A stretch of 64,000 nt of DNA. Source: Massalongia carnosa (lineage: Eukaryota). Under the pieces are notes generated by a model that saw nothing but the letters and a program-made list of their open reading frames with translations, was not told the DNA's origin and did not search any database. This document shows, one piece after another, positions 1 through 24,889 of the stretch; within the stretch, counting starts at the first letter, position 1, and each line of letters opens with the position of its first letter. The position numbers and the translations under genes are program-made. The DNA is taken from assembly GCA_965645245.1 (NCBI GenBank), contig OZ287072.1, forward strand, positions 186,001 through 250,000, read 5' to 3'.

Positions 1-75
1 ATTATTCTTTATGAACATGCTCTTTAATAAAGAGCACGTTTAAACTATAGAGCATCTGTTAATAAATGAATATAG

Positions 76-1061
76 TCAATGGAAGATATTTTCATCCTGG
101 GTCAAGGATAATTTTCCTAAACATGAGATATCTGTGTTACATCCAGACAAAAATACTCCATATTTGATAGCTTATTGGATTTATCAAAATTGTGATTCTC
201 CTGAATCTGTTGAGTAAATGCATTATTCTTTTATATTAATGAGCTCGTTTTTAATGAACCTGTCAGTAATAAAAACTCAACACTTGCTATTCCTCAAGAT
301 AAGTCATGGTTACATGCATATAAAATGCGCTCCGCATGCAGTTGGAAGTATGCATACAGCATGGAGTAAGGTTCTATTGAGCTTGATTTATTGATCTAAG
401 CTCTTGGTGATTGGAGAATGATTTACGTTTTAGATAGACACTTGAAATTGACACTTGGAATTGAGGTGATGATTGCTTGCATTGAAAGGATTTTGCACCC
501 ATTCTCTCAGTTACTAGAATGTTGGGATTCGGTTAATAGATTACCGTATCCGAGCTACATATCGCTTACTGCTTGACCACTAAACTGGCTGACAGGTTCG
601 CATCCTTGGAGAAAGGATCTAGATGGTTCATACAGTGGCAATCCGTCTATTTCGAGCACGGTATCTATCTACATGAAAAGCTTGCAAAGAAAAAAAGTGA
701 GTTCTTTTCGTTCGAGCTCCTTTAAAATGAGCATTATCAATAATATATTTCAGGTGCGAGCAAGTACTGTATCTCAAAGCGCAAGAGCAATAGACGCAAA
801 TTTGTTATTTCGTTTATACGAACATAACAAGCAACATAAAATCGCTAGTCAACTGCATAGACTCGGTGTAGACGAGCAAGGAGCTCGATTTTGGGGCGGA
901 GCAGCTCAACGTATGATGATGTTAGTTGCTTATGTTTTGAGTTTGTCTTTTGCGATTTGATGAAGTTCTGCACATTCACGCAAATCATATCGAGCTCATA
1001 GATGAAGAGAAAGGTAAAATCGCGTGGTGGTTAAAGTTTCGCAAAACACATCAGGAAGGAG
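76..1061 (+). pseudogene. 5' exons of an intron-rich tyrosine recombinase gene (continues at 24370-24889; true start lies upstream of 76)
   Basis: Manual splicing (GT-AG introns 214-266, 697-753) gives ...PYLIAYWIYQNCD...HAYKMRSA...GNPSISSTVSIYMKSLQRKK/VRA..SARAI...WGG..QRMM...LRFDEVLHI...LKFRKTHQEG, with catalytic R and K positions. Has a premature TAA, a frameshift near 948 and a solo LTR insertion. Confidence 0.8.
375..594. mobile_element. Solo LTR inserted in a YR exon
   Basis: TA(ex-TG)...CA ends, 5-bp TSD GGTTC at 370-374 and 595-599; removing it restores the frame GSHPWRKDLDGSYSGNPS. Confidence 0.8.
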
Positions 1062-1780
1062 GTATGTGATCGCTCATCGGGAAATCGGGAGATGACTAAT
1101 AGATCTTGATGATTAAATATTCGACTTTTTGGTTTCTTTAGTCTTTATTCGTCAACCTTTAGTCATTTGCCTTTATCTATTGTACGTCTTTTCGTCATAT
1201 TAGTCAGTGCAACCTGCATCTCAACAAATAATCGTCGCTCTGTCTCTACTTCTCGTCTCGATAAGCTTTATTATTCTCAGTACCTTGACCTTTTAATAAT
1301 TCAGTCGTATATTATCCACTCTATCCTATCTTTACGTCCTCTTTATCCGTCGCAGAGTAATTTTGGTTGTTCAGCTGCTCTCTTTACATGTCACATCGTC
1401 ATAAATTGGCTTCGTTGCAGCTTTTGTATCTTGCGTATAACATCTCTTTATAATGCGCAACCCACCCTGCATGTCTCATCGAAGATAATGTTACGCACAT
1501 TCAGTTCTCGAAGATCAACAGTATTCTACATCATTACGTGGTTGTGATTCTCATTATTCTTTGAATTGATGATTATCTGTTACTTGATGACGAGAAAGCC
1601 TGCTTAATGCTTAGAGAGCCCAGATCTTAGAAGACCAACTACTACCGCGACGACATATTAAGCTCATCTGTTCTGGAACAACAGTCCCTCTTAGACGGAA
1701 GCTCTTCCTTATCCTATCAAAAAGCGCATGCGTTTAGGAAACCAATTCTCTTCAATCCTAACATAACACAACAGGTTTCG

Positions 1781-1950
1781 TGTGACGAAGCGAGATAGTG
1801 AATAGATTTCTACCATTGCGCCACCTATCCTCCCGACCAAAAGGCACAATACTTAGTCCGCAGATCAAGCTCTATTCTACTATAACTGGGACTCCTGTTA
1901 TGTTCGCTGTAGGTCCTGCCGTCGAGACCACGCATGGTCGAACCGTTACA
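1781..1950. mobile_element. Solo LTR (same family as 42816-42984)
   Basis: TGTGACG...CGTTACA, highly similar to 42816-42984; no clear TSD (TTTCG vs TTACA). Confidence 0.8.
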
Positions 1951-2174
1951 TTACATTATAATCCCTAACGTTAAGTTATAATCCCAAACATAAGTTAAAC
2001 ACCTAATCCATCGAGTCTAAAGGATTCAAGAGCACATGTAGGTCTAGATATATGGGACGTGCGATCGGGGTGCGCTCTGGGTCGCAATACAAATGGACTC
2101 GGTTGGTTATATTAACCTGACAAATAGAGTCCACTACTTGATTTGTTCATCGGGATATATGCCACAAAATCCTT

Positions 2175-2480
2175 CGTATGGACGGTGGTCAAAGATAATA
2201 TGGATGATCGTATCGATAGTGGACAAGAAGGTGGTTTGGATGATAGTCAAAAGTTGGTATGGACGGTAGTCTGGATGGTGGTCAAAAGGTAATCTGGGTG
2301 GTGATCTGGATGGTAGATAAATGGTTGACGAAAGATGGTCTAGATGATGGTCAAAAGGTGGTATAAGAGGTGAACATTCAGTTCACGAAGAATGTGGCGA
2401 AGGGCCGTTGCGGAGCGTCGATGAGCAGGTCTGGGGCAGGAATTAGGCTTTTCGGGGGTGCTTACTATATTCAGTACTAT
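2175..2480 (+). repeat. Degenerate GGATGGTGGTCAAA-type tandem array followed by a motif shared with 48784-48800; possible non-autonomous Helitron relic
   Basis: Repeated TGGAYGRTRGTC units at 2175-2365; AGGGCCGTTGCGGAGCG at 2401-2417 is identical to 48784-48800. Confidence 0.45.
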
Positions 2481-2649
2481 CGTCTCCGCAAAGAACACTG
2501 TTGTCCTCTGCTATGTCCGCCGTCTTCAACGCTTCAGGTCTGAAGTGCCACGAACTCGTTGCCGCTTCCATGATACCTGGTAACTATTGTTACAGGTTAA
2601 CGGATATCATTGTATGTTAACCGTTGCTAAAAATTGCTAATCACAAGGA

Positions 2650-2856
2650 TTAGACATCAACTTTGCTGTTAGATGCTGTCCACTGCTGTTAGATGCTTCC
2701 AGCTCTTGTTAGATGACGCGCTTTGCTATTAGATAATAGAGACTTCTGTTAGATGACACCCTTCGCTGTTAGATGCTGTCAGCTGTTATAAGATGTTTCT
2801 AACTCTTGATAGATGACACGTTTTGCTGTTAGATGTTGGGTTCCCTTATTAGATGA
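2650..2856 (+). repeat. Array of ~10 CTGTTAGATG-core repeats, ~15-21 bp spacing
   Basis: Directly visible; reverse-complement core ATCTAACAG is arrayed at 21271-21345. Confidence 0.8.
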
Positions 2857-4973
2857 ATGACAGCAGTTTTGCAAGATTAGCATATCCTTATCAATGTTTT
2901 ACTTTCGATTTGATTGGTTTGATATCTGCTTTTCCGCCGTATCTGCTGCCCGGATCCCTTTGGCCAGAAATTCCTCGTCGTATAACGTGTTGAATTGATC
3001 CCAGTCTATGTAATTGTTGACGTAAAACACGTCTGAGTTGATTCCCGATGGTATCAAATGTGCGCTACGCATTATCATAGATAGATCGTAGAATCGTCTA
3101 CCATTCAAATTTCGGGGGATTTTGCGTGTGTTCTGGGCCAAGTCTTCATTTCTATCATTCCATGTATTTCATTCGGTTGACCATTGTTCCGAGGCCGTAA
3201 AAGATCAAGAAGCACACCAGAATACATCGGGTGTTTGCCTCGAGAGTCTCTTCTGGCATGATCAACAATGGTAACAATCAATTGAACATGTCCTATCAAT
3301 CTTCCCTCTAGAGCTCTAGAATTGCCAGTTCCGTGGCACTCTCCTGCAGAATTTTCCTGAACCCATACGTAATCTCGTCTCCAGTTTCTACTCCTCATCC
3401 AGCTTGGTGCGCAACGTATGATTTCGGACTTGAGCGCCTCCAGGTCCGATGAATCCTTGCCATCCCGTATCCAGCATTTGATACCTTTATGTATCGAAAT
3501 CAAATGTGAGCCCGCCCAAGAAGAATCCGTCTCTCGTCGATATAAATTAGCATTGCTAGTTCGTACACCCTCCAACTTGTATCGGCCTTCTCTGATGAAT
3601 ACTGCCAAGGCGTCGAGGAAATCGTGAAGATGAAGCACGTCCGCAACACGAAAAGCTTCTCGCCATATTTTGTAACTTCGTCCGACCGCTTGCAGTTGAT
3701 CCATTTCTTCCTCATCCCACGACCAGTCTAGTGACGAAAGATCGAGGGCTCGAGTAAGCGAGGACACTTGCACTGTCATCTCTTTATCTACTTGATTTCC
3801 CTTTCTGCTCTGCCTGTAAAGCTCAATGTCTTTCATTGCCAGGGAGTTGAGACGTCGCGTGTTGTGTTGTGCTATTTGATCTAAATAACCGTCTTTCTTG
3901 TTGGTCCTATCGAAAAAAGCTTTAACTAGATATCGATGAGCAGCTTCGCTGTGAGAAGTATCCATCCCATCTGCGCTGCCGAATTGTTTGATATGCTCCA
4001 CATAATGTGTCATGACATGCCACTTAGGAAAATTAAAGGTGGGTTGACCGGTTTCGTTGTCTTTGGGTCGACTTTTTCCAAACACCCTTTTGAGCTTGTC
4101 GATACGATACAACGCATTGTGGCGAAATCACAGATGGCTCGAACGCAGAGCATAGCAGCAGGACATTTGCCAGTCAGAAATGGAGCCACAACAGGAACAA
4201 ATATTCTTAGTATATCCTTTTGTTCGTTCCCCGACCATTGTGTTATCTTACTGAACTTCGAGAAATGTTGAAGATCAGAAAACGAAGGCACAACGTCAAA
4301 TCGATGGTCGAGCTGTGCAGCAATGGGCGCTTCCTCAATCAAAGCCTCGTCAAATCTTCGTTTTCTTTTGATTGGCGTTATATCATCAATAAGGATCTGA
4401 GTCCATTCTATCATATTCATTATAATGCCCTTCAGCAGTTGATGAAGTATATCAACCATCATTACACCGTGTATGTTGACCAATTGATGTTTCCAAGCAA
4501 AATTGGTCACTGGATGTACCCAGGCTTCATTTGCCTTTGGAATTACTTGTCTAGTTCGGCTATGCTGAGAGCTAGTGCGTCGTTAATCGAGACAGCTCCC
4601 GCTTTGATTTCGGCACCGCATGGATCTCTCGGACGGCATAGATGTCTCAGCACCATAAGGATGTCTCAGCACGGCATAGAGATCTTAGCACCGCATCGAT
4701 CCTTCGGACGACAGTTAGGTTTCGGATTTGTGTATGCCTTGCTATGGGCCGCGTTGATGGGGCATACTGGGATGGTAGAGTAGGACAAGGAGAATAGGAA
4801 GAAGATATATAAAGAGGAGGTCCCAGACGGTATCCCTCATCATCTCACATCTCAAGACAATCAAAAGCATAGCATTTTGATAGCACTGTTTGCAACGTTT
4901 TCTTTTCACCCAATTCAAATTTATACAACCACTACACTTAAATTTACTCTATTCAAATCCCTCTCCTCCAAAA

Positions 4974-6128
4974 ATGGCCACCCGCATCTCCAACAGAATC
5001 ACCAAGCCTACCTCCCGCACACAAGGCAGCACTCTAGCCCGTACTAGAACTAGAGCTAGGGCAAATCTAGCCAACTCCAACCCAGACGTCGAAGTACCCG
5101 ACTCACAAGACAGCACGGCAACCCTTCAAAGCCATCCTCAACCTTCTCCTCTTCCATCTTCAGCGTTTAATTCCTCCTCACAAGGGCCTGTTATACCGGA
5201 AACCCGTTCTCGCACCCCTGATGACATTATTGAACTTAGAGCACAACGCGAAATGTCCCGCAGGGAAGCCGAGGAAAGAGAAAGAGTAAGTCTTAGGCGG
5301 GATATCGAAACCCAACAAGCACGTGCCCGAGACGTGGTCCCTGGGCCAGTAGCCTCAGCTCAACAGCCTTCCCTATTATTTCCGACATCATTTCCACCGC
5401 ATCGACCAAACTCATTGTATACAGAAGGTATGGATCCTCGTTTTGTTTCTCTTATGAACGAATATCCCACTATCAAGCCCATATGGATAAAGCAAATCTC
5501 CGAGAATACGTTTGACCCAATCAACATTACCAAGCTATGTACCGACATCGACGGAGTTCAAACCAACTCTAGATACGTCAAACTCGGAGAAGGTCTGGAA
5601 ATCGCCACGAGAGAAGAAGATGGCTCCTTAAAAGATATCAAAGGGATAGTTCATTTGATACGATGTCTCGGGGTATATTGGATGATACTACTACACTTTG
5701 CACACCCCGGTCTCCAGATAAACCTGATGAGAGCCTTCATGGCTTATCAGGACCATCTTCTATCATTATACGCCTTCTACACCTGGGACTCGGTTCGCAT
5801 CTTTCATTTGAATTTCCACAAATCTCGAGCCTTTCGCGGGATTGACAACCCGGATGGATGGAAAGAAATGGACCATTCCTTGGAAAGGCATCTTGTGCGG
5901 AAACCGTCCGCTTACTTTGCAAAACCGGACGATAATTCTACGGCTTTCAAAACCTCAGGCGAAAAGATTATCTGTAAGAAATACAACTATGGCAAAGACT
6001 GTCCCGTATATTGTAGATTCCAACATGTGTGTGAGAAATGTGGAAAGCAACATCGGGCGATGGACTGTACAAATGGAAAAAATCAACCCTCTAACCCAAA
6101 TTCGATGCCTCTCCCATCAAGGCAATGA
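4974..6128 (+). CDS. Ngaro A Gag-like protein with C-terminal Cys/His zinc fingers
   Basis: ATG at 4974 downstream of TATATAAA (~4805); C-terminus CKKYNYGKDCPVYCRFQHVCEKCGKQHRAMDC. Confidence 0.85.
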   Translation: MATRISNRITKPTSRTQGSTLARTRTRARANLANSNPDVEVPDSQDSTATLQSHPQPSPLPSSAFNSSSQGPVIPETRSRTPDDIIELRAQREMSRREAEERERVSLRRDIETQQARARDVVPGPVASAQQPSLLFPTSFPPHRPNSLYTEGMDPRFVSLMNEYPTIKPIWIKQISENTFDPINITKLCTDIDGVQTNSRYVKLGEGLEIATREEDGSLKDIKGIVHLIRCLGVYWMILLHFAHPGLQINLMRAFMAYQDHLLSLYAFYTWDSVRIFHLNFHKSRAFRGIDNPDGWKEMDHSLERHLVRKPSAYFAKPDDNSTAFKTSGEKIICKKYNYGKDCPVYCRFQHVCEKCGKQHRAMDCTNGKNQPSNPNSMPLPSRQ

Positions 6129-7745
6129 CTAACCGCCCCATTCTTATCCATCGCGGAGTCCTTTCCATACACCTTGACGGACAATCTAACAAAGATCCCA
6201 CCGGGCCCATTGAAGAAAGAAGGCTGGGAGAAACATTTGGCCAATCACCCGGATCGCACTTACACACAAACAATTATCGATATCATCACCTACGGTGCCA
6301 AAGTTGGTTATACAGGACCACATCAACTCATTATTAGCGATAATCTTGCCTCTGCAAATGAGGCACCGGAAGTTCTTACCAATGACCTCGAAGAACAAAT
6401 AGCTAGTAATCGGTTGGAGAAAGTCAACAACATTCCTTCTTGCTTTATATGTTCCCCATTAGGCCTTGTACCAAAGGCTAACGGTGGTTGGCGGCGAATC
6501 CATCATCTATCGTATCCGGAGAGTAGCTCAGTCAACGACCACATACCGGAAGACTGGGGCTCCCTGGAATATACCAGCTTCGACGAAGCCATTAGGTTGA
6601 TTGAGCAACGCGGGCCAGGGTGTATTCTTATTAAAAGAGACTTTGCGGACGCTTTTCGCCACATACCAGTAGCAAAAAGCGATTGGTGGTTACTAGGTTT
6701 CAAGTGGCAGGATTCCTTTTGGATGGATAAATACTTACCCTTTGGGCTGAGAACGTCGCCGTTCCTTTTTGATCTGTTCGCGAAGGGTATCAACTGGATA
6801 TTGTACAACTGTGGTTGGAAAGACGCTATTCATTACTTGGATGATTTTTTAATAATAGTCAGCACCGGACCAGATGCTGAAAAGTTTGATCAAGTTTTCC
6901 ACAACATTTGTAAAGATCTTGGCATGAAAATCAAGCTCGAAAAGAACAGAACTGGAACGACTTGCGATTTCCTCGGCATTGAAATCGATACCGCGCTCAT
7001 GGAAGCACGCTTGCCTTCCGAAAAGTTACTAAAAGCAAAGACCCTAGTATCGGCAGCTTTGAATAAAAAAGCCATACCCAGGAAGGAACTCGACTCTCTT
7101 CTAGGATTCTTATGCTTTGCAGCCAGAGTGGTAAAACCAGGAAGAGCCTTTCTACGCCGTCTTTTCAATGCTACGGCAAGCGTAACCTCTAAACTAATCC
7201 ATCTTAACAAGGACATGAGGGCTGATCTTCTATGGTGGCATCATTTCCTACCTAAATGGAATGGCATACATCTGCTCAACCGTACTAGACATACTATGAG
7301 AATATGGACAGATGCGTCCGGCTCATATGGTATGGGCGGCTTTATCCTCAGCGAGGATCAAAATTTGCATAATATACAAGCAGCCCGGCAGGCTTTTAGC
7401 ACACGCTTTACTACGCGCCTTAGGGCAAAGCATATCAACGTCAAAGAAATGACAGCAATTCTTCAAGCTATGAAAAAGTGGCTACCTATATGCAAGGGTA
7501 GTCATTTAATCCTCTATTGTGATAGCTACGCTGTCACGAAAGGAGTGAATAAAACCTCTATACGAGGCCAAGCAATGCATGCCCTGCGGGCAATTACAAT
7601 GCTAGCTGCATTACATGATATCCAGATAGAAGCGCGATGGATATCATCCAAAGAAAATTATATTGCTGATCTCTTGTCTAGAGGACTTTTGAAGAAACTG
7701 GCTGACAAAATCCCTCAGTTTCAGGCTCTACCCTCAGCAATATAG
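6129..7745 (+). CDS. Ngaro A reverse transcriptase/RNase H (in frame with gag, no early ATG)
   Basis: SPLGLVPK, WRRIHHLS, DFADAFR, LPFGLRTSP, HYLDDF, TDAS, INVKEM, ADLLSR. Confidence 0.92.
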   Translation, partial: LTAPFLSIAESFPYTLTDNLTKIPPGPLKKEGWEKHLANHPDRTYTQTIIDIITYGAKVGYTGPHQLIISDNLASANEAPEVLTNDLEEQIASNRLEKVNNIPSCFICSPLGLVPKANGGWRRIHHLSYPESSSVNDHIPEDWGSLEYTSFDEAIRLIEQRGPGCILIKRDFADAFRHIPVAKSDWWLLGFKWQDSFWMDKYLPFGLRTSPFLFDLFAKGINWILYNCGWKDAIHYLDDFLIIVSTGPDAEKFDQVFHNICKDLGMKIKLEKNRTGTTCDFLGIEIDTALMEARLPSEKLLKAKTLVSAALNKKAIPRKELDSLLGFLCFAARVVKPGRAFLRRLFNATASVTSKLIHLNKDMRADLLWWHHFLPKWNGIHLLNRTRHTMRIWTDASGSYGMGGFILSEDQNLHNIQAARQAFSTRFTTRLRAKHINVKEMTAILQAMKKWLPICKGSHLILYCDSYAVTKGVNKTSIRGQAMHALRAITMLAALHDIQIEARWISSKENYIADLLSRGLLKKLADKIPQFQALPSAI

Positions 7746-8761
7746 GACGCGATCCACCCCCATCTTGGTACAGTGAGGTACCTTTAGACGAAATCGCAGC
7801 ACGATACCTCTGGTGGGGCCTGGCCACTAAGACAAGATCTTTATACACAACGGCAAGAAAGGGATACGTTCTTTACTGTAGGGTAAACCTCAACGCGCCA
7901 CCATTTCCAGCCAACATCCGGACGCTGTCTTCGTGGATCGCAGCGTTGGGTGAACGACGCCTGCAACCAAAAACTATTAAGAGCTACTTGACGGGCATAA
8001 GATCATGCCAGATAGATATGGGCCTCGGTAATCTCGACGTATTTCATCACCCGGTGTTAGATCGCATCCTTACTGGCATAAAGCGAAAGAACGGTGAAGC
8101 CGAGAAACGTGAAAGGTTACCAATTACTAGAGAGATCTTAATCAAATTGCTAAGTCGTCTTGATCAAACGAAAGAGAAAGGCGCAAATTTACATGCGGCG
8201 TACTGCTTAGCGTTTGCAGGCTTCTTACGAGCCGGAGAATTTACTTACACAACGCAAGATGTACTAGACCCAAGCTTTGATCAATGGCACCTCACCAGAA
8301 AATCTATTAGGTTCGAAGCAGATCACCTACAGCTCTCTCTACCAGTCTCCAAAACCGATCCCTTTCGCCGAGGCATAACACTGACAATTGCGGCTACCAA
8401 CGATGTTGCTTGTGCACTAGCTTCTCTTACAAATTTATATAGGCGATTCCCAAGTTCTCCGGCCGCACCACTCTTTAAAAACGGTCAGTCCTTCACTCGA
8501 GACTACATTACAACAGCGATGAAATCCACCTTAAGGAACTTGGGCTATATAGGAAATTTCTCTGGCCACTCGTTCAGAAGAGGTGCGGCAACAACAGCGC
8601 GACGGGCAGGACTCACCGAAGACGAGATTCAGATGCTAGGAAGATGGAAGTCAGACGCATACAAGCTTTACATACAAACCCACCCCACTTACCTTCTTAA
8701 CGCCTCAAAACGCCTTCAAACATTACCCACGGAACCTCACAATCCAGTCACTAGGTCCTGA
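7706..8761 (+). CDS. Ngaro A tyrosine recombinase (open frame starts at 7706 without ATG)
   Basis: FLRAGE, SKTDP, GHSFRRGAA, GRWKSDAYKLY; frame open from 7706. Confidence 0.92.
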   Translation, partial: QNPSVSGSTLSNIGRDPPPSWYSEVPLDEIAARYLWWGLATKTRSLYTTARKGYVLYCRVNLNAPPFPANIRTLSSWIAALGERRLQPKTIKSYLTGIRSCQIDMGLGNLDVFHHPVLDRILTGIKRKNGEAEKRERLPITREILIKLLSRLDQTKEKGANLHAAYCLAFAGFLRAGEFTYTTQDVLDPSFDQWHLTRKSIRFEADHLQLSLPVSKTDPFRRGITLTIAATNDVACALASLTNLYRRFPSSPAAPLFKNGQSFTRDYITTAMKSTLRNLGYIGNFSGHSFRRGAATTARRAGLTEDEIQMLGRWKSDAYKLYIQTHPTYLLNASKRLQTLPTEPHNPVTRS

Positions 8762-10130
8762 ACAACACCGCAAGCGGGTCGTTCCATGTTGGGGATTGGG
8801 AGTCTGTTCACAGCCCAAGGCCTGCGAGAGGGTCTTACATTAGTAGACAGCAAGGCCCTTATCGAGTCCCCCTCTCGAGGCCGGGGGCTGTGAGCAATAG
8901 CCCAAACATACTTAGTAGCAATATAACGAGATTGACACGAACTAGCTAGTTCGGCTATGCTGAGAGCTAGTGCGTCGTTAATCGAGACAGCTCCCGCTTT
9001 GATTTCGGCACCGCATGGATCTCTCGGACGGCATAGATGTCTCAGCACCATAAGGATGTCTCAGCACGGCATAGAGATCTTAGCACCGCATCGATCCTTC
9101 GGACGACAGTTAGGTTTCGGATTTGTGTATGCCTTGCTATGGGCCGCGTTGATGGGGCATACTGGGATGGTAGAGTAGGACAAGGAGAATAGGAAGAAGA
9201 TATATAAAGAGGAGGTCCCAGACGGTATCCCTCATCATCTCACATCTCAAGACAATCAAAAGCATAGCATTTTGATAGCACTGTTTGCAACGTTTTCTTT
9301 CCCACCCACCCACTCCAGTTCTTCTGTCGCTTAGATAGAGGGAGTCTGTTCACAGCCCAAGGCCTGCGAGAGGGTCTTACATTAGTAGACAGCAAGGCCC
9401 TTATCGAGTCCCCCTCTCGAGGCCGGGGGCTGTGAGCAATAGCCCAAACATACTTAGTAGCAATATAACGAGATTGACACGAACTAGCTCTCTTGTTTGG
9501 CGATTTGAGATCGAGTTGTTTCATGTGTGCGTGGATCCCATTTTCCTAGTAAATTTTCTCTTTCGTTTGAGGGAACCTGGCAAATGCTACAATGACGCTG
9601 ATATTTTATCCCCGTAATCAAAACCTGCTCTTCGTAGTCCACAGTGAAGCCGGCGATAATAGGATAACATCGTCGCACATGTCCATCGGCACAAGTCAAA
9701 AGGATACCATTTTTGAATGTTGTTTGATAGCTAGCACGGCATTCAAGTCATGGTTAGTTATCGTTATAATAAGGAGGGAGTGAAACTCACGTCTGAGCAT
9801 CATTTTCATTGCAAGATGATAGACCTGAGCTTTCAGTTCGTCTCCCTTCTCCTTCTCCTTGACAATAGGGATAAAACCTAACAAAACGATACCCGGTCTA
9901 TTGGGCTGGCGTCGAGTCTTTCGATCCAAGTTTCCAATCGTAAGATAAACAGGCCACGCCGACTGATCTCCATGATGCTGGGTGAGTCTTGTTTTGTCTG
10001 TAGCTAAGAGAAGTGGCACAACTGTTGCATTTTCAGGAAGCTGTTCTTGAATTGACCACCACCAGTCACCTGTTGCCATTTCACTGAACATACGTAGATC
10101 TGCGCTATTATACTGACGGATGGGTGCGTA

Positions 10131-14953: not shown

Positions 14954-16639
14954 TGAGATGTCCTACCGAGCCTTATCCTATGTGCTGTCCTTGCGTAGAT
15001 CGTTCACCATCTGCCAAACTCATTACCTTACCTGGTCCTTCATTAGTTTTCGCAGTAAAGAATCTATTACAGAATTGGAAGAATGAGTGGGAGAAGTCAG
15101 TGGACACTCAACGCTCCTCTTTGATGGATCTTCAGTTGTTTATAGCAGCACATCGAGATGAAAAGACTCTGCAACTACAATACCACCATCGACTCAGTCT
15201 ACATACGAACTCCGACGATCAGCCAATCTCCGGTTAGGAGCGATATGTGGTGCTAACTACTACGGGCTCTTACCAGGGTCAAGTACAAACACTACTCCGG
15301 AAGCTAATTCCACGTAAAGAACTGGCGTCCAATGGGGGCGCATCATTGTAGATGAGATCCATAAGCAAAAGAGTGTCTCCGCTACACTTCCCAGCCTATT
15401 GCATATCGTCGCGGGAAAGTACTTCAAACATCGACATCTCTCCTATGGATATGGCCGGCTATTTGCGAGCATTGGCTACCGAAAGCTGGGAAGCAGACTC
15501 AGTGCTACAGCATGGAACTAGAGCGGGATTAGAAAGCATTGGAAAAACCTTTCACGTATTGATAAAAAATCAAGCCGGTAACATAGAAGATAAAAAGAAG
15601 GTAACGGGAACTTTCAGAGCGCTGCTACAGCGGATTATGATTCGCCGGACTAGTCAGAGTCGTTGGTTTGACGACCAGCCATTGATAGATATTCCCCACA
15701 TAGACATCAAGAGGTGCCATGCCTCTTCAAGAAGAAATACGTCGCCGACATGAATGCGCTCATAGTCATAGCGGAGACAAAGCTCAAGGAAGATTGTGCA
15801 GCACGAAGTGCAGCATGGATCGATAGAGGTCGGATAGGAGAGGCACCAAAGCGTCCTTTTGTGCGTTTCTATGACCCTTATCGGTGCCGTTACCTTCGCT
15901 TGCGCTGGGGGGGCTTTTAATTGGATGAATTGATTTGAATGCTTGAATTTGATTGGGCATGGGAACGACACAGGTCAGCCCGGGCAGGCCTAGGCACGTG
16001 ACTCGGGGTCGGTGCTGAGGTGAGAACCTCATCTTCTAGGCCCGAGGCGTCTGCTGACGCTCAACGATCCGATAGATGATGCCCGACGGCAGTGCCCGAC
16101 GGCGATGATCTAGATGGAGGTGCCCGGCGGCGCTCCGGATCGATGCCCTGGTTGACCTGTACGCCCATCGCTCACTTAAGGTGGCTTCTAACTAGCTATG
16201 AATCTCGGGTGGCCGAGGGTGGGGAAAAGCAGCAAGCACTGACAGCGAGGTAGGGGCACCGAGACAACGTGGGGTCGACGACGAGTCAGTGAGATGGATG
16301 AGGCCGAGTGAGAAGAAGTGGATGAGGAAAGAATTTTCAGAGGGTGATTCTTAATTTACTTTGACTCAGGGGCCTCACGTGACATAGAACCATCTCATCT
16401 ATGACCCTTATCGGTGCCGTTACCTTCGCTTGCGCTGGGGGGGCTTTTAATTGGATGAATTGATTTGAATGCTTGAATTTGATTGGGCATGGGAACGACA
16501 CAGGTCAGCCCGGGCAGGCCTAGGCACGTGACTCGGGGTCGGTGCTGAGGTGAGAACCTCATCTTCTAGGCCCGAGGCGTCTGCTGACGCTCAACGATCC
16601 GATAGATGATGCCCGACGGCAGTGCCCGACGGCGATGAT

Positions 16640-17803
16640 CTAGATGGAGGTGCCCGGCGGCGCTCCGGATCGATGCCCTGGTTGACCTGTACGCCCAATG
16701 GAATGCCCAATTGAGTAGGGGTAGGAGTTTGTAGGATTCGTCTCGGCGACGACAGCACGTGGGACTGCTAGAGGGATGCCTTTTTGAAAACTGAGGTTCA
16801 AATTGAATAGTGAGGCCTGGGACGTCTGAAAGTATAGCTGAAACGCGTTTGATGACCATCTTCCGAGTCTCTGAATACTCTCATCCAGCATCCCGTGGTC
16901 GGCGGCGTGTTGTGCTGCTCCTTTTCTGAAGCTGTGTCCCGAGTATGCCGAGTCGTTGATGCCGACGGCTATCAGTCTCTTTTTCAGGGATGCTATGACG
17001 GAGGCTCTGGTGAATGCGGTGCCGAGACGAAAAAGCGGGGATGTAGATGGCTGAGGATCATTTCTGAAAAGACGCCGTAGTGCTGTCACGGGGCAAGTGC
17101 TCTCATTGGTCGCTGCCAGCACTATCTGAACTCCTGAGTGATTTGTGTCTGTTTTGCTTCTTTTGAGACGTAATGTCGCGTATTGATCGTTCTCGGCGAA
17201 TGAGATGTCACCTCGTGTAGGTTTCAATCTCTGAAAAGATGTCTTCTTACGATCAGCGACAGTGTAGGTGATTTCCCCGAGTCTGAGGAACCCTGCCCAT
17301 GCAACTTTGAATGTCGCGTCGATGTTGAGGTCTTCGGCCGAATGAGCGGGAATACTGGTGATTTTTGTCAGTAATTCTTTTGAAATGGGTAGGCGTCTTC
17401 TTTTTGTCTGAGAAAAGATCCTTTTTCCCCCTTTCAGCATCAATTGAAGTCTCGGCCCCTCGAATGGGGTGAGGCCGTATCCTCGGTCTACATGGTATGA
17501 TCTGAGGCCGGCGAGGTAGCTCGCTGCCGTCTCTGGTTTTATCTTTCCCTGCTTGGGTGTGCCGCCCCCGTATAGTCGACCGGCTAGCCATTCCTCGAGG
17601 GACTCGGTTGTTGCAGGCCACGACGTGCGTCCCGTCGTCGCGCAGAATGCCTCGTATGAGTCGATCGCCGTCCCGTACCCTTTTCTCGTGTCCGCCGAGT
17701 GTCCGTGCCAGACGAGACGTTTTACCAGGGCTGACCCTGGTGTGGAGGATAGGTAGGTGGAGGGAGGTTCATCGAATTGTATGGGTTCTGCCAATGAGGG
17801 CAA
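16640..17803 (-). CDS. Ngaro B tyrosine recombinase
   Basis: FLRLGE, KRSKTD, GHSFRKGAA, GRWSSNAFQLY. Confidence 0.92.
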   Translation of the reverse strand: MPSLAEPIQFDEPPSTYLSSTPGSALVKRLVWHGHSADTRKGYGTAIDSYEAFCATTGRTSWPATTESLEEWLAGRLYGGGTPKQGKIKPETAASYLAGLRSYHVDRGYGLTPFEGPRLQLMLKGGKRIFSQTKRRRLPISKELLTKITSIPAHSAEDLNIDATFKVAWAGFLRLGEITYTVADRKKTSFQRLKPTRGDISFAENDQYATLRLKRSKTDTNHSGVQIVLAATNESTCPVTALRRLFRNDPQPSTSPLFRLGTAFTRASVIASLKKRLIAVGINDSAYSGHSFRKGAAQHAADHGMLDESIQRLGRWSSNAFQLYFQTSQASLFNLNLSFQKGIPLAVPRAVVAETNPTNSYPYSIGHSIGRTGQPGHRSGAPPGTSI

Positions 17804-19425
17804 AAGTTAGCCAATCTTTCATCATCAAAACGTGACAGGGCATCTGCTAGTCCATTGGAAGTGCCACTGATCCATTGACAACGTAGTACGATGTCCCACT
17901 TTGCAGCTATGGACAGTATTTCTCGTAGAGGCGCGTTGGCCGGTCCCTTGAGGGTTAGATTCGTGAATCCTGTGTATGCTGTGTTGCTGTCGGTAAAGAC
18001 AAGGATCTGTCGATGTCGCCATGTCGGCGCCCATTTCTGAAGGATTAGAAGGATAGCTTCGACTTCTCGGACGTTTATGCTCGGTGATCCTTCCTGATTG
18101 AGGACTAGGACTCGGGCCCTACATGCGTTTTTTTGATTCACGAGCTCGTTGTCTTGTTGAAAATAGCCTCCGAGACCCGTGAGGCATGCATCCGTATGCA
18201 CCTTGATCGTGTCTCGTGTTGACGTCTCGAAGAAGACAATACCGTTGAAGTCCACTAGAAGTTTGTTCCACCAGATGAGATCCTGTCTGACCCATGTGGG
18301 AATTCTTCTTTTGACCCGACGATGACTGCCCGAGGGAAATGAGGCTATAAAATTCCAGAATAATCGTAAGAAGACTCGGCCCAATTTGACTGCCTGTGCG
18401 CAGAAGCTTAGGAAGCCCGCTATTGACTGCATGTCGCCGAGGCTGATTGTCGTCTCGTTTAGTGCCTTTGTAGTGATGATTCTCGCTTTTTCCAGCTTGT
18501 CCGCTGGCAGACGAATAAGACTGTTGATGGTGTCGACCTCGAGTCCGAAGACTGTCGCTGTCGTTCCCTCGGCGTCTTTTGAGTCGTTTCTCGGGATGCC
18601 GAGAATGTCGGTGAGAATGTTGTAGGCTTTTGTTTCTTGGTGCAATCGTTCTGACGATGTCTCGGATGGGAAAATTGCAACGAAGTCGTCTAGATAGTGA
18701 TGTAATCTCCATTGTAGAAAGGATTCCAAAATCCAATGAAAGCCTTCCGCAAAAAGATTGAAGATGAACGGGGCCGTCGACAGTCCGAACGAAAGGCATG
18801 TCTCGGTGTAGAATTCGTCATTCCATCCGAAACCCAGAAGCCATTGATGATGAGGTGCGACGGGAACGTTTCGAAAGGCGTCTTTGACGTCTCTTTTCAC
18901 TATGACAGCACCTTTGCCCGCTGACAGAATCAATTGAATAATGTCGTCGAGTCTGGCGTATTGTAATTTGGATGCCTCTTCTGGAATGTTGTCGTTGACT
19001 GATGTTTGATTGGGATGAGACAGATGATGAATGCGTCGCCATCCTCCGTCATGTTTCGGGACCAAGCCGAGGGGGGAGGCCACAAATGGCTGACTCGGGG
19101 CGGCTATTCGTCTGACTCGGCCCTTCCTGAGGTCCTCTTGGAGCTTATTCTCGATCGTTTCCGGGTCCTCATTCGCTGATGTCAGATTTTTTTCGATCCG
19201 AAGGATGTCTGTGGGGCCTTCGTATCCGATTTGTACTCCGAAACGAAGGATCATGGGCAGATGGACTCGGAGGGGGCCCGGATACTCTTGAAGTAGAGTT
19301 GCCCATGCGGACGGTACGAGGGGAGATGGGCTGTCTTTCAAACGCTGACGAGATGCGTCTACGAGTTGAAACGAAGGGATTGTATTTGGTCTGATTGGTG
19401 CAGGTAAGCAGGGATGGGACGTCAT
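17722..19425 (-). CDS. Ngaro B reverse transcriptase/RNase H
   Basis: SPLGLVPK, DVKDAFR, LSFGLSTAP, HYLDDF, HTDAC, INVRE, TDS, ADALSR. Confidence 0.93.
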   Translation of the reverse strand: MTSHPCLPAPIRPNTIPSFQLVDASRQRLKDSPSPLVPSAWATLLQEYPGPLRVHLPMILRFGVQIGYEGPTDILRIEKNLTSANEDPETIENKLQEDLRKGRVRRIAAPSQPFVASPLGLVPKHDGGWRRIHHLSHPNQTSVNDNIPEEASKLQYARLDDIIQLILSAGKGAVIVKRDVKDAFRNVPVAPHHQWLLGFGWNDEFYTETCLSFGLSTAPFIFNLFAEGFHWILESFLQWRLHHYLDDFVAIFPSETSSERLHQETKAYNILTDILGIPRNDSKDAEGTTATVFGLEVDTINSLIRLPADKLEKARIITTKALNETTISLGDMQSIAGFLSFCAQAVKLGRVFLRLFWNFIASFPSGSHRRVKRRIPTWVRQDLIWWNKLLVDFNGIVFFETSTRDTIKVHTDACLTGLGGYFQQDNELVNQKNACRARVLVLNQEGSPSINVREVEAILLILQKWAPTWRHRQILVFTDSNTAYTGFTNLTLKGPANAPLREILSIAAKWDIVLRCQWISGTSNGLADALSRFDDERLANFCPHWQNPYNSMNLPPPTYPPHQGQPW

Positions 19426-19470
19426 GAATTCAGCTATTGAAGCTATTCTACTGCCTCCTGCACCAACCCC

Positions 19471-20484
19471 CTATTTCTTCGTTGGGCATGTCTTCTGGCC
19501 ATGCCCAGCCGCGCCGCACGATTTACATTTGTGCTGTCGGTAGCACGACGGCCAGGTGCAGGTGCCGCTGTTGTACTTGTCGCAGATTTCCCCCGCTGCC
19601 TTCTCGGCCCTATCGGCCCTGTCTCCTCTCGGGGTCGGTCGCCGGGACGGCGGGGATCGTGAGCGGCGACGGCGTAGGACTGTGAGGGGGGTGCAGAATC
19701 GAGCTTGGAATTCGTCGGGCATTTTCCATTGGGATGCGTCGGATGGCTGAGACGCGATGATGTGAGTGTGGGTTTCGATGGCGAGGGGGAGGACTGCTTC
19801 CTGCCACTCGTACACCTTGGCCAGCGTGAGGATTTTTCCGTGGAATGCCGACATGGTGGCGTGAAGCTGTTGACTCGATTTCCCGAAAAGACTGACCATG
19901 ATCGAGGTGTAGTTGATGAAGCTCTCGGTCCAGACGTCATGAACTGTCTTTCCGAAATCTTTGTAGGTCCCGGATGCCTTTCTCAACCTCAAGGCGCCGT
20001 CTTCGATGCCGATGCGGTCCTGATCCTTGTAGGACTCGTATTGCATGCCGTGCATGTGTCGGAGGCGGGAGAGGTTGATGGCTTTGAATTTATTTGAAAA
20101 GATCTTGATGATCTCGTCCTGTGGTAGGCCCGCGAAACGGGGTGCTATACTTCTTACTTCGAGAGGGATCTCACCTAGGTCCTCGTCGTCATCGCCGACG
20201 ACACGACTCGGCTTGCCAGCAGGAATGACGGCCGCTATTCGGGCGTCAGATTCTCGGCGCATGCAGTCGATTTCTAGCTGCATTTTTTCCACCTCCTTCT
20301 CGGCGACCAATGCCTTGGACTCGGCAATTCTGGCCTCAGCCTCGGCCGCCTTCGCTTCTGCCTCGGCTTTCTTCTTTTGTAGGGCGAAGATTTGATTGGA
20401 CTGGGCCTGCGTCAATCCGACAATCTCCTGGGAGTCGGGGACTATGTCGTCCATCGGGGTGCTTTGGGAACGGGTGTTCGTCAT
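19471..20484 (-). CDS. Ngaro B Gag-like protein
   Basis: ATG at 20484; coiled-coil-like N-terminus; C-terminal CDKYNSGTCTWPSCYRQHKCKSCGAAGHGQKTC. Confidence 0.85.
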   Translation of the reverse strand: MTNTRSQSTPMDDIVPDSQEIVGLTQAQSNQIFALQKKKAEAEAKAAEAEARIAESKALVAEKEVEKMQLEIDCMRRESDARIAAVIPAGKPSRVVGDDDEDLGEIPLEVRSIAPRFAGLPQDEIIKIFSNKFKAINLSRLRHMHGMQYESYKDQDRIGIEDGALRLRKASGTYKDFGKTVHDVWTESFINYTSIMVSLFGKSSQQLHATMSAFHGKILTLAKVYEWQEAVLPLAIETHTHIIASQPSDASQWKMPDEFQARFCTPLTVLRRRRSRSPPSRRPTPRGDRADRAEKAAGEICDKYNSGTCTWPSCYRQHKCKSCGAAGHGQKTCPTKK

Positions 20485-21270
20485 TGGGAAAAAGCACCGA
20501 CAGCGAGGTAGGGGCACCGAGGACAACGTGAGGTCGACGACGAGTCAGTGAGATGGGAAAAGCAGCAAGCACTGACAGCGAGGTAGGGGCACCGAGACAA
20601 CGTGGGGTCGACGACGAGTCAGTGAGATGGATGAGGCCGAGTGAGAAGAAGTGGATGAGGAAAGAATTTTCAGAGGGTGATTCTTAATTTACTTTGACTC
20701 AGGGGCCTCACGTGACATAGAACCATCTCATTTCTTGACGGCGTACAAGTTACGAGTCGCCACGACCTTTTCATTCTTGGCCAAGCTGTACAAGAATTAC
20801 AATTCTAAACCTATCGAAATAACAAAAAAAGAGTGACATATCAAGCCAGATCCAGAGTTTAATCCATATGTGCAGCATCTTGGGGAGACCATAGAATCGA
20901 GCTTTGACTAGAATGAGCTGATGTATTCGTTAGGTCAGGAGCATAACGACACGAGAAAATCTATTGACTATGTTATCTTCCCTAGCCGGATGTCATGTTG
21001 CATTTGTGGTGCGTCACATCCTATACTACTCTCATTATCGATTCAATGAAATAATTTAACCTACTGCATAGAACAGATACTAAAACATAGAATGAATACC
21101 GACGTTCAAAATAACAGTCGCAGCGCTCACGATACTGGAGGACTACGAACTATCTACATATGACTCGGGATCACGGGCATTGGAGACTTTATCGTTTGAG
21201 ACTTTTGAGGTTTGACATACTGAACCTTTTACAGAGATGATCTACGGTAAGCTAACACTAACTAATCCTA

Positions 21271-21345: not shown

Positions 21346-21552
21346 AACCGTTAGCATATCATAACAAAGTCAACTATCCTAACACGCTAGATTTGATTGC
21401 AATGGCAAACTTGTTCCTTTTACTTTTCGCGTCGATCTCTTCTACTTTGCTCGTTTCCCAAACCCACAGGTATTGCATATTCCTTGTTGCTTCTTTTTTT
21501 TCACTATGTCAACATCAAAGGCAACCACTACTAACAACCCACAAAGAATCAC

Positions 21553-23924
21553 AATGGTACGAACCTCCCCAGGATGTATAGAAACCAACGTGTATCGGCT
21601 GACTTTGCTTTTCCTTCGAGAACTCTCAGGATTTTGATGATTCGCCTTCCGAGGAAGACTTGCCTACATTGGCACAAGTAAAACGCTCTCGTGCACAATT
21701 TGATGGAAATAACACTTACGGAGACAACAAACGCTCACATCGCCTGCCTTGTGTGGACGAGTTGGCTGAATCTAGTACTGGCAACGACTCAAGCGATGCG
21801 AGTTTCCAGCCGAGTGTAAATAGTACAGTCATGAATGCATGTATCGGGTTCTGACTTAGAACAGAAAACGCCGATAACTAAGTATGTGGCGAGGACATTA
21901 CGGGCCGGTGCAGGCCGCGGTATTCAATACAGCTCAAGTTCTCCATCTCGAAGGAGCTCCTTACGAAGGGCAACGTTCCCCTCGTCTCCACCGAGAAAGC
22001 CTTCCCGCGCACTGGATAATATCTTGTCACCTTCACAAATACGCACTCGTCGGGGTTTGCCTGCGACACTCTCCTCGCAAACTCTCGAGATCTCAAAGGT
22101 CCTCCCGATCAAGTTTACTTCCGGCACAAGGGCTGGCATAACGGAGGACGAGACAGTCTCCGAAATCAAAAAAATAGATGCTTATCGTTTACTCTGGGGT
22201 GACATATCAAGGCGAACCAAATTCAACTCTGGCCCTGCTCATCAACCAATACTACGTGCCATGATTCCTTTTTTCAACGCTCTGATAACATCCGGACACG
22301 TGGTTGAATTATGTTCGCCTTGGGCGAATACACAGAAGCCTCGATTGAGCAAATTAATGAGTCGTACTTGGCAGGACCTTGCGAAGCGTCTCGGTGACCT
22401 TCCTGGCAACCGGAACGTCGACGTAGCAGAACTTCCCACCGCCGAAGAGGCTCGCAGGGTAGGTGAGGACTTGCTTACAACGGTTGTACATATAAAAACT
22501 AATCTGAGACTAGATTTATGATTCGACAACGGATTTTCGCTCTCAAATGTTGAGCAAAGTGAGATTGCTTGTGGCTAACGAATACCCGTTCTCAGTTCAG
22601 AGCGACTGTCGAATATTCGTGTCCACTTTGCTAGACGATCTTCATTTTCTGTGCGAAGATTTATCAACGGTTAATATGTCCTAGTTATCTTGATATAAAG
22701 TTTAACTAACTCGCGAGTAGGCTCCGAAAAGGCAGTTTCTCGCGCCTATCTTGATAAAGGCAATTACTCTGATATTCTTCAATAACGACAATGACTGCAG
22801 CTATGGACGCAATATCGACACTGCGCATTTGTTCAATCCACTTCGAGGAGAAGTGATCGTGTTGATAGCAACTCTGATTCAACATTCTATTGGAGAGTAT
22901 GAATACGGGCAAAAAAAGGTACAGGCTTTTGATGGGTCACAGCGAGAGAGTAAGTTTGTATCAATATAATCTTTGCTGAGTTGAGGCATTAATACTGAAA
23001 AGCAACCCATACTCGAATGACGAACACCTGGAATCAACAGTCCTCGGAGAGAAAGATGCTGTTACAAAGAATCATTCATCGGCGGGTTATGCGTCAGACT
23101 GGACAAAGAGATGGGGACTTTTCGGCGGTCACAGAAGCTGTCCACAATCCATTTGCCACTTCTATTGACGATCTTGTAGATCTTGATGCGGGAGATGAAA
23201 TGACAAAGTCGGTCAGGTCGACAGCGCGGCTTTCTTCCTTGACAGCTTCGTGTAGAACTTCGATCGTTCGTTGCGAGGAGGTGGATTCGGGTTTTTCGGT
23301 ATGTCTTGATTGGTATTATGCTTTGGAATTATCAGTAACAACAATAGAAGGAAACCTCTTCACCTAGACCGCCGCAGTTGACGAGCCACGAGGTATGCAA
23401 TCTTATTAACCGCGTTCTAACGTAGTGTTAACATCTCTCCTAGAATTCTTCGCAGCGTGGACCCTCACAATTAAAGCATAGCGCAGCAAGTTCATCCTTC
23501 GTAAGTATTCGCTTTATTTATAGAATATCTATTAGTCTAACAATTGCGTTGGAAACAGATTAACGACAAGATATCGTCAACTCCAACTCCACTCGCGCAA
23601 GACGCAATCGTGACGACAGATTCGGGTCAAGAAGATGCGGTAGATTACGATTTACGCATAGGGAAAGACTGGCGGATTAGGATGAGGTATGATGCAACGT
23701 GGAAGGAGTGGCAGACTGCTGTGGGAATGAAAGATGGAGAGTCGTTCTGGTATACTGTACCAACATTTCCCGAGGCCGTATTGAGCTTTGAGGAGGAATA
23801 TAGTTCGTTTTTGGATCGGGTGGAACAGGTGCATAGAGTAATGATACGAAGAGGAAACTGGGCGCAATCTCAAGCAGATGAAGACTCTGCGAGGGAGGAC
23901 GACAATATGGGAGAACTCACATAA
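21553..23924 (+). pseudogene. Uncharacterised multi-exon gene in the right arm of the Plavaka element, probably degraded
   Basis: Consecutive + strand frames (21660-21854, 21835-22521, 22751-22969, 23544-23924) separated by intron-like GT..CTRAC..AG segments; no recognisable family. Confidence 0.5.
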
Positions 23925-24369
23925 CATTATTTAAACTAAATCTTGATAATATACTCGACTGGTGTGTTTTTATTGTCGTATCTTGCAGCATCAAGCGCTC
24001 GAAATGGAAACAAAAGCAGTGCATTTTGACATACGCAAGATTTGTTACAATCGTTACTAAAACAACAAGTTAATTAATGAAATTATTGGATTCAAATGCT
24101 TATAACGACACAAAAGAGTCAATATAACAATTATCATCATTGGACAAAGAAAGGTAAAGGTAATCAATAGTCAAAGAGCAACTGTTTACACGTCAAATGT
24201 TCGACTATTCGTCAAGCGCCCATGTCAAACGTGGGCGCAATCGGCAGTACCTAGAACATTTCGGCTAATTGACTAATGTAGCCTATTAGTCGACCATTTG
24301 ACCAATTCGCGGGTCCTCCCGATTCCCCGATGCTATATGAGAGTTCATATTTAAAATAAAATTTCTCAG

Positions 24370-24889
24370 AAATCAAACCGTTTTATTTATACTGGAATCG
24401 GAAGGAACCTCATCTAGATGCTGTACATCTCTTGTGTAGATGGTTGCATCATACTGAATTAAAAGAAGGATTTATTTTTCGTCGATTCGATCAGTATGAT
24501 AGAGTAGATAAAGCAAGTCGTCCTATGGTGAGTATGCTTGATAGTTCTTGTTTTCAAAGTGCTCTTTTTAAACGAGCTCTTAGACCTCGTCCACGTTTTT
24601 AGAGAATTTTCGCAATAATCTTGCCGATATAGGAATAGATCCAGCTCCTTATGGTACTCATTCATTTCGAAGAGGAGGCGTACAATATCTTTCGAGTGAA
24701 AAACGATGGAACATACGCAAATTATGTGATTGGGGTGGATGGTCTCAAAGTTATGATACTTTGACAATCGTTCGTTATTTAATGAATTGGAATGACGATC
24801 CTACAAGACGACGAGATGATTTCATGAATCCGGAAGCACGGATCGGAGTAAAATGTTCTTATTATGGTCGAGCTTGCGATTGTGCATAA
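24370..24889 (+). pseudogene. 3' exons of the intron-rich tyrosine recombinase gene
   Basis: EIKPFYLYWN...GFIFRR...RPM / intron 24528-24583 / FLENFRNNLADIGIDPAPYGTHSFRRGGVQYL...W...LCDWGGWS...IVRYL...CSYYGRACDCA*; HxxR, W and Y catalytic positions present. Confidence 0.88.

Follow-up and report, generated by a model that had tools for sequence, protein, structure and literature searches.

We analysed a 64,000-nt stretch of DNA from Massalongia carnosa (positions 186,001 to 250,000 of contig OZ287072.1; hereafter the window), in which two groups of open reading frames (ORFs) on the + strand, 44-1061 and 24370-24889, were found to be pieces of one colinear Cre-like tyrosine recombinase (YR). 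Seven pieces of the window (44-217, 286-369, 577-696, 754-939, 941-1060, 24369-24527, and 24584-24889, all +) aligned to seven full-length relatives in the same order and without overlap; the full-length fungal proteins matched by these pieces are 430-530 aa long. The protein P0007 of Physcia matched the window in six colinear segments with 44-70% identity (tblastn). The first exon (44..206, +) encodes part of the core-binding domain (...WKIFSSWVKDNF...WIYQNCDSPES; 44% identity to residues 95-146 of P0007) and is open on its 5' side: the gene continues beyond the left border of the window, and ~100 N-terminal residues of the relatives have no counterpart in it. It is followed by an exon at 286..369 (+; IPQDKSWLHAYKMRSACSWKYAYSME), which was placed by alignment to relatives with an approximate acceptor, by an exon region at 577..696 (+; GSHPWRKDLDGSYSGNPSISSTVSIYMKSLQRKK; donor at 697), and, after a 57-nt in-frame intron (697-753), by an exon at 754..939 (+). 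The catalytic Arg/Glu (LLRFDE) and Lys (FRKT) are encoded by the exon at 941..1061 (+), which ends in phase 1. The remaining two exons lie at 24370..24527 (+; IKPFYLYWNRKEPHLD...FIFRRFDQYDRVDKASRPM) and 24584..24889 (+), the latter carrying HSFRRGG, GGWS, TIVRYL, a C-terminal knuckle, and the stop codon (24887-24889). The splice junction between 1061 and 24370 is a canonical phase-1 GT..AG junction that yields HQEG-E-IKPF with a spacing identical to that of the relatives. The catalytic series R..E..K..HxxR..W/H..Y is found in the correct order across these exons. An earlier note on this DNA had proposed that the terminal pieces encode a single YR with R-K-HxxR-W-Y residues, and the colinear alignment to full-length relatives, with all catalytic boxes present, bears this out.

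The gene carries two visible lesions. The reading frame is broken at 928-945, where the window encodes A-Y-V-L-S, one extra t, and C-L-L-R, as opposed to AYxxAF(L/V)CLLR in every relative. This frameshift (937..945, +; AYVLS-t-CLLR) lacks 5 nt relative to all relatives and most likely represents a 5-nt deletion just upstream of the catalytic Arg. The C-terminus reads KCSYYGRACDCA as compared to CxxCGRxCxC in the relatives, with a Tyr codon (TAT, 24863-24865) where the relatives have the second knuckle Cys; the earlier note had guessed at such a TGT>TAT change in a C-terminal CxxC, and the Cys of the relatives shows that the guess was correct. Because of the frameshift near 940 and of the change from a zinc-knuckle Cys to Tyr, the window copy appears to be dead (a pseudogene). 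We consider it highly probable that 44-1061 and 24370-24889 are the remains of a Crypton-type DNA transposon gene, which encoded a two-domain Cre-like YR with a CxxCGRxCxC knuckle and was split by a nest of transposons. Repeat-induced point mutation was considered as the cause of the low GC content (37-40%) and of the TGT>TAT change, and was rejected based on the indices TpA/ApT (0.69-0.73) and (CpA+TpG)/(ApC+GpT) (1.23-1.49). The metagenome units of the relatives described below present a likewise low GC content (34-41%).

The two halves of the gene had previously been read as an intron-rich gene reconstructed across 23 kb. Public contigs from four runs (X1-X4, of which X2 is labelled lichen metagenome) were placed on window positions 23300-26800. 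One 4810-nt contig of X2 matches 24332-25801 and 26146-26798, and the 30 letters directly before 24332 are CAAAACACATCAGGAAGGAGGTATGTGATC (...CAGGAAGGAGGTATGTGATC), which correspond to window 1042-1071; the contig also reaches 1.5 kb upstream of window position 1. Since this contig joins both gene halves, 1075-24332 (23,258 bp) is an insertion and not a native intron. The insertion is polymorphic and lies in a conserved intron that measures 48 nt without it; the same phase-1 intron is 32-56 nt long in the loci of 13 relatives. The giant intron of the earlier reading is really this 48-nt intron and a 23,258-bp nest that is absent in X2. At the empty site GATCGCT is followed directly by ATATGAG, as compared to GATCGCT, the insert, and CTATATGAG at the filled site, giving a target duplication of 2 bp (CT) or, when shifted by one base, 3 bp (GCT). 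The 5' part of the intron (1062..1074, +; GTATGTGATCGCT) ends with the 2-3 nt of this duplication, and its 3' part (24333..24369, +) begins with the second CT and ends in ...TTTCTCAG.

The insert is bounded by terminal inverted repeats (TIRs). The left repeat (1075..1091, +) begins 13 nt into the intron and reads CATCGGGAAATCGGGAG, and the right repeat (24316..24332, -) is identical to it at 16 of 17 positions. With up to two mismatches, this sequence was found at exactly 2 sites in the window, as compared to 0.04 expected. A total of 13 contigs reach 24332 and then enter differing sequences (six in X1, four in X3, and three in X4), and the summed contig depth of X1 over 23300-24352 is ~10-fold or more above that over the YR exons. 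These differing continuations and the high depth indicate that the inserted element exists in many copies and that its end lies at 24332.

Several elements are nested within the insert. A Ngaro-type retroelement (Ngaro A; 4551..9489, +) encodes a reverse transcriptase (RT), RNase H, and a YR, is gag-less, and presents split direct repeats (A1 / B1-A2-B2) that are 100% identical. Plavaka transposase fragments are found at 9696..12291 (-; PF18759, E 9e-36 at 9696-10178), and another piece at 4010-4582 (-; PF18759, E 9.6e-5). Since Plavaka pieces lie on either side of Ngaro A, this retroelement sits inside the Plavaka gene. A Tc1/mariner element (10129..11469, -; DDE_3 and HTH_Tnp_Tc3_2) with 29-nt inverted ends, a 1.9-kb element (13097..14979) with 48-nt inverted ends and no Pfam match, and a second gag-less Ngaro-type retroelement (Ngaro B; 15868..20731, -; RT/RNase H/YR, split direct repeats 100% identical) are also nested there. 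The outer transposon with the 17-bp inverted ends probably belongs to the Plavaka family, as the insert resembles Plavaka in its transposase pieces, its TIRs, its 2-3-bp duplication, and its many copies; we infer the link between the Plavaka gene and the outermost ends, which may instead belong to another nesting layer. A multicopy cut-and-paste transposon inserted into the conserved phase-1 intron of the YR gene and was in turn invaded by two Ngaro elements, one mariner, and one other inverted-end element, expanding 48 nt to 23.3 kb. The empty-site contig dates this transposon nest as a recent polymorphism.

A separate motif was observed in the introns of the gene. With at most one mismatch, WWAACGAGCTCAT occurs six times in the 64 kb, as compared to 0.41 expected, and is confined to the YR relic unit: 239-251(-), 987-999, 24569-24581, 25570-25582, 25604-25616, and 25781-25793, mostly within YR introns and the partner-gene relic described below. 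The X2 allele presents a 14-nt insert in the intron with a core similar to WWAACGAGCTCAT, and CTCGATTTTTAC is common to introns of the metagenome relatives. This sequence may be a conserved intron or branch-site element.

We then characterized the recombinase family. A profile built from 12 full-length relatives matched 3387, 1040, and 265 clusters (50% identity) at E ≤ 1e-3, 1e-10, and 1e-30, respectively, and many fragments were found among the best 150 clusters. The last exon (24584-24889, 101 aa) matched 19 of 34 candidates among longer proteins at E ≤ 1e-3 with 56-70% identity; all its named matches are fungal and their function labels are 'DNA breaking-rejoining enzyme' or 'Tyr recombinase domain-containing'. 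The hosts include Agaricomycetes (Mycena, Paramarasmius, Pleurotus, Ganoderma, Psilocybe, Suillus, and others), ascomycetes of lichens and rock (Physcia stellaris and Cryoendolithus antarcticus), and the aphelid Amoeboaphelidium, whose YR is one protein with three accessions on three contigs. Pfam scans were conducted on 43 family proteins, 14 of them at E ≤ 0.1 and 29 at E ≤ 0.01. Phage_integrase was weakly matched in 4/14 and 5/29 proteins, and NDC10_II in one of the 14 (E 0.0066). RT, GCR1_C, DUF3435, and DUF3504 were detected in none of the 43 proteins at these thresholds, in agreement with the earlier note, which had seen no RT or GCR1_C and no resemblance to DUF3435. Protein P0171 likewise presented no GCR1_C at E ≤ 10.

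Searching PDB sequences with the family profile returned only Cre/Tre (17 rows at E ≤ 10, best E 0.0016) and no Ndc10, and the alignment paired LLRvdE and RKT of the family with the Arg/Glu and Lys region of Cre. The AlphaFold2 model of the relative P0004 (predicted local distance difference test, pLDDT, 81.6) had Cre/Tre as its best PDB matches in Foldseek (E 1e-9 over 366-400 columns, target-normalised template modelling score 0.49-0.53), followed by lambda Int and Xer. This structure search predicts a two-domain fold for the family YR, with a core-binding and a catalytic domain. The family YR shares 20-30% identity with the three Ngaro YRs of the window in partial local alignments, and 23-26% over the longer ones (147-207 aa). 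A quick maximum-likelihood tree of 86 rows was built with these Ngaro YRs as outgroup (support 100). The window YR grouped with Physcia and two Cryoendolithus proteins (SH-aLRT 96). The neighbour of this group was the clade whose units are complete with three genes (99), and most Agaricomycete copies fell elsewhere in the tree.

The complete units were found in metagenomes. Our scan yielded 367 candidate stretches, of which 300 were confirmed as relatives and 80 loci were kept for locus counts. About 14 metagenome contigs measure 4.6-5.5 kb, and wherever they were compared with each other the homology extended over almost the entire contig; for instance, L060 (189-4719) and L077 (182-4708) are 77% identical and their homology stops at both ends. 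Each of these units carries three genes: the YR, which contains small introns, a SAP-domain gene encoded on the other strand, and a small convergent gene. The main exon of the SAP gene was identified in 46-49 of the 80 loci, without exception in the orientation opposite to that of the YR, and is upstream and divergent in one clade and downstream and convergent in others. The small convergent gene, which presents a KCxGC...CGC motif, was found in 22-23 of the 80. The YR and two small genes are the only contents of L060 and L001, none of 12 partner-gene ORFs of L060, L001, and the window matched an RT (Pfam, E ≤ 1), and the RT near the window YR copy belongs only to the unrelated nested Ngaro elements. 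No Pfam family fits the partner exons. Full-length homologues of the SAP gene gave 33 matches and are multicopy in Agaricales (e.g., four in Galerina and three in Phlegmacium); a search among longer proteins gave a single match. An N-terminal SAP domain was detected in 12/12 full-length partner proteins (E ≤ 0.25), four of them above the Pfam cut-off, and GCR1_C in 0/15 partner proteins at E ≤ 1 (Pfam). In the model of the SAP partner (pLDDT 64) only the SAP domain was matched (Z ~5; Foldseek E 0.8-5), and its C-terminal domain gave no clear fold match.

Three further observations were made on these relatives. The conserved YR intron is ~32-43 nt long in the low-GC (34-41%) complete-unit clade (L001, L060, L067, L071, L076, L031, and others), and introns of this size are unusually short for fungi. 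The YR of L056 (6393 nt) branches off first among the ingroup rows of the tree, and the first and last 400 nt of this locus are perfect inverted copies; they are explained either by a palindrome created in assembly or by inverted ends of great length. Finally, the gene models P0019 and P0020 (Paramarasmius) and P0077 (Arthromyces) fuse the YR to an XPG_N/XPG_I nuclease, in both orders. An XPG nuclease as a regular partner was rejected, as neither the window nor the 80 loci gave an XPG match in tblastn, and we read these models as neighbour-gene fusions of one Agaricales lineage; a larger Agaricales element with both genes may lie behind them.

The ends of the element could be read in the relatives. 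In the complete-unit clade, clusters of the 7-mer GGACTGT and of its complement are confined to the vicinity of the two ends. Across the 21 loci examined, the right end is organized as GGTGGT, ~20 nt, ACAGTCC, 6-8 nt, and GGACTGTC(G/T)GATT.C.G...GAAT(T) in 11 loci, and a second such palindrome is found inside the left end in 10 loci. The reverse complement of the outer left end reads GGTGGT...GGACTGTC...AGGCCCAATT. Seven units have both ends (~4.5-5.1 kb). In these, the loci cease to be homologous at GAATTGGG(G/C)C at the left end and at GAAT(T) at the right end, and GAAT(T) or TAAT(T) is found at both ends of all seven. L031 presents no long terminal repeats. Near-identical copies diverge right after GAAT(C/T): L009 and L013 (98.6% identical) after ...ACAGGAAGAATC, and L049 and L058 (99.6% identical), which belong to another clade with CCGTATTT as arms, after ...GGAGAATT. 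The apparent boundaries of L033, L034, and L035 were discarded because they consist of a polyubiquitin repeat and an A-rich tract and are not element ends. The arrangement of arm, 6-8-nt spacer, and arm at the right end constitutes a loxP-like candidate site, and the near-identical relatives with different flanks suggest that the family is mobile.

These features point to a possible mechanism. An active element would be 4.5-5.1 kb long and would encode the YR and an opposite-strand SAP gene, together with a small four-Cys convergent gene in the clade next to that of the window. Direct GAAT(T) repeats would delimit it at either end, together with inverted arms, GGACTGTC or CCGTATTT depending on the clade. 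The YR would bind the arms and recombine both ends at the GAAT(T) core to form a circle, whose junction would then recombine with a GAAT(T) target. Short direct terminal repeats would be the expected trace of a YR element recombining at an AATT-type core. An excerpt of PMC9977147 reports that the Goodwin model of Crypton transposition has been observed for CryptonF-1_cRei in Chlamydomonas, with a terminal CACCG and a CAYCG target, and an excerpt of PMC3212892 (Kojima & Jurka 2011) gives 4-6-bp terminal direct repeats for Cryptons.

The best match to the family YR, in sequence and in fold and over both domains, is Cre of the Cre/loxP system of phage P1, whose site also consists of two inverted arms around a spacer, as does the right end of the family with its 6-8 nt. 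In contrast to Cre/loxP, the family is eukaryotic, intron-bearing, and multicopy, shares 15-17% identity with Cre, and has a site read from sequence alone. Among eukaryotic elements, the closest likeness is to CryptonF elements, which were reportedly described as DNA transposons by Goodwin in 2003. Like them, the members of the family are YR-encoding DNA elements that measure a few kb, contain spliceosomal introns, and lack RT and long terminal repeats, and both have 4-6-bp direct terminal repeats that match the target (CACCG/CAYCG in CryptonF-1_cRei according to the excerpt of PMC9977147; GAAT(T) here). The family differs by the absence of a detectable GCR1_C, the DNA-binding candidate being the separate opposite-strand SAP gene, by a third small Cys-rich gene (in one clade), and by the CxxCGRxCxC knuckle at the C-terminus of the YR. 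Cryptons are moreover described without TIRs in the excerpt of PMC3212892, whereas the ends of the family present imperfect inverted arms and a lox-like site.

Taken in the broad sense, the features of a Crypton were found: no RT in the element and, in the relatives only, short terminal repeats and differing flanks. The DUF3504 of CryptonA/Glomhopper and the diagnostic features of Starships and DIRS/Ngaro elements were absent. The family looks like an apparently undescribed Crypton variant in which the SAP partner is encoded by a gene of its own and the ends resemble lox sites. Full-text literature searches turned up neither this family nor any Crypton that has a SAP-domain partner; the family may already be catalogued in Repbase or Dfam. 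We tentatively suggest, as a possibility short of a probability, that it represents an undescribed lineage of eukaryotic YR transposons. This lineage would combine a Cre-like YR and zinc knuckle, a SAP partner, a four-Cys protein (in one clade), clade-specific lox-like arms, and an AATT core, and would span Dikarya and aphelids, with the copies of lichen and rock ascomycetes nested among soil-metagenome copies.

Alternatively, the family could belong to the already described CryptonF group, with its DNA-binding module on a separate gene and too diverged for Pfam, which we regard as rather doubtful. In an Atlas comparison, which we treat as a lead only, a Mucoromycota cluster with NDC10_II (the CryptonF-like YR domain of Ndc10) ranked second for the YR (score 0.98, 194 shared features), and the C-terminal half of the SAP-gene protein was nearest to two clusters in which 33% and 47% of the members carry GCR1_C (scores 0.88 and 0.87). 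The single NDC10_II match among the 14 proteins scanned and the 4-5-bp terminal direct repeat, which fits the behaviour of CryptonF elements in excerpts of PMC3212892 and PMC9977147, are consistent with this possibility. However, described CryptonF members carry the YR and GCR1_C in one protein (excerpt of PMC3212892), and GCR1_C was found in none of the family YRs or SAP partners scanned, nor in P0171 at the permissive threshold given above. The PDB profile search stayed with Cre/Tre, and Ndc10 was not among the Foldseek matches listed.

Several results weigh against our main reading, in which the window copy is a dead Crypton-type gene with such active relatives. Unit structure and ends derive from soil-metagenome contigs of a sister clade and not from the clade of the window, and no circle junction, empty site, or activity of the YR element was seen. 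The upstream side of the window YR copy lies outside the window, which contains no SAP gene (expected in this clade upstream, beyond the window edge), and the frameshift near 940 is known from the assembled sequence of the window. A small convergent Cys-rich partner gene may persist as a relic at 25414..25759 (-): a hidden Markov model (HMM) gave its best match to the ORF 25414-25578 (E 0.0024; ...LLPCGC...), followed colinearly by 25616-25759 (E 0.28). This single match below 0.01 weakly supports a convergent partner, and tblastn found no match for the small gene in the window at E ≤ 0.01. A first relic candidate, 25011-25217 ('VDLL'), was set aside as the HMM favours 25414-25578. The earlier proposal of a separate YR element with a convergent partner thus stands for the compact units of the relatives, and in the window only a weak relic corresponds to it. 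Left- and right-end profiles found no recognisable YR element ends in the window (nhmmer; best E 0.31-0.44, at unrelated places), and a terminus proposed by eye at 26388-26436 was rejected, its pattern giving 0 matches. The flank comparison that the earlier note had advised revealed ends in the metagenome relatives, and an empty site only for the 23-kb insert in X2. Finally, the same YR relic occupies the same locus in four runs of three studies, which indicates that the copy is of old date and has reached fixation or come close to it.

This sharing of the locus could also be expected of a domesticated host gene, i.e., a resident recombinase-derived protein, and most exons are still open and family members are annotated as ordinary genes in many genomes. 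We consider domestication improbable given that in this genome the frame is broken before the catalytic Arg, a conserved Cys is lost, a 23-kb insertion splits the gene, and transposon debris surrounds it; the family is also multicopy, patchy across phyla, and rich in fragments, and its near-identical members have different flanks. A Starship captain (DUF3435, e.g., the lichen 'Tangerine') or a stray DIRS/Ngaro recombinase is hardly credible. The lichen context and the Ngaro elements of the window would fit such an origin. Starship captains are fungal YRs that occur in lichen hosts and move DNA bearing short direct repeats and, in some cases, TIRs (excerpt of PMC13486527), and Ngaro/DIRS elements, of which the window holds three Ngaro copies, share the fungal host and the HSFR(R/K)G..W..Y catalytic box. 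However, DUF3435 was found in 0/43 family proteins, the complete relatives are 4.5-5.1 kb long without cargo, and Tangerine captains lack a core-binding domain (excerpt of PMC13486527) whereas the family YR has one matching that of Cre. The complete units have no RT or RNase H beside the YR and no split direct repeats, and the Ngaro YRs of the window share only 20-30% identity with the family YR and form a fully supported outgroup. A working gene with a giant 23-kb intron is equally hard to maintain: the canonical GT at 1062 and AG at 24369 in correct phase are the splice signals of the pre-existing short intron, an allele without the 23,258 bp exists in X2, and the frame is broken upstream.

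If an undescribed lineage is correct, the family would provide a compact system for site-specific recombination that is eukaryotic by nature and whose site can be read. No class of eukaryotic DNA transposons is less well understood than the Cryptons, and defining their ends is notoriously difficult. The complete copies directly show ends, candidate arms, a crossover core, and two partner genes, so that excision and integration assays are easy to design. For the window itself, our results constitute a correction, with a pseudogene and a transposon nest instead of a giant-intron gene.

Downstream of the YR relic lie a Harbinger element split by a MULE fragment, a third Ngaro element, two Gypsy elements, a MULE, and helitron-like pieces. 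The YR element had been suggested to have seeded this cluster. The elements around it (Ngaro, Plavaka, mariner, Harbinger, MULE, and Gypsy) are unrelated, and the YR copy, which was their target, is one relic among many transposons and not the seed. The third Ngaro-type retroelement (Ngaro C) is at 29986-33670, and its YR is 98.8% identical to that of Ngaro B; together with the 100% identical repeats within Ngaro A and B, this suggests very recent activity. Contigs of X1, X2, and X4 skip 25802-26145 (344 bp), joining 25801 to 26146, and the contig depth of X1 is ~175,000-327,000 over 25757-26107, as compared to ~2,000-20,000 over the YR exons and relic. A second insertion polymorphism is thereby seen at this segment, which is a small element of high copy number. 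Fragments of a PIF1-like helicase (PIF1, Pif1_2B, and UvrD_C_2) at 42751-44470 (+) suggest a degraded Helitron. Beside the transposon field, a 1262-aa open frame at 55095-58883 (+) encodes a NACHT-type NTPase (NPHP3_N, E 2e-44), a winged helix, and WD40 repeats, and represents an NLR-like gene; it is followed by a fructosamine kinase gene (59838-60797) and a fragment of a major facilitator superfamily (MFS) transporter.

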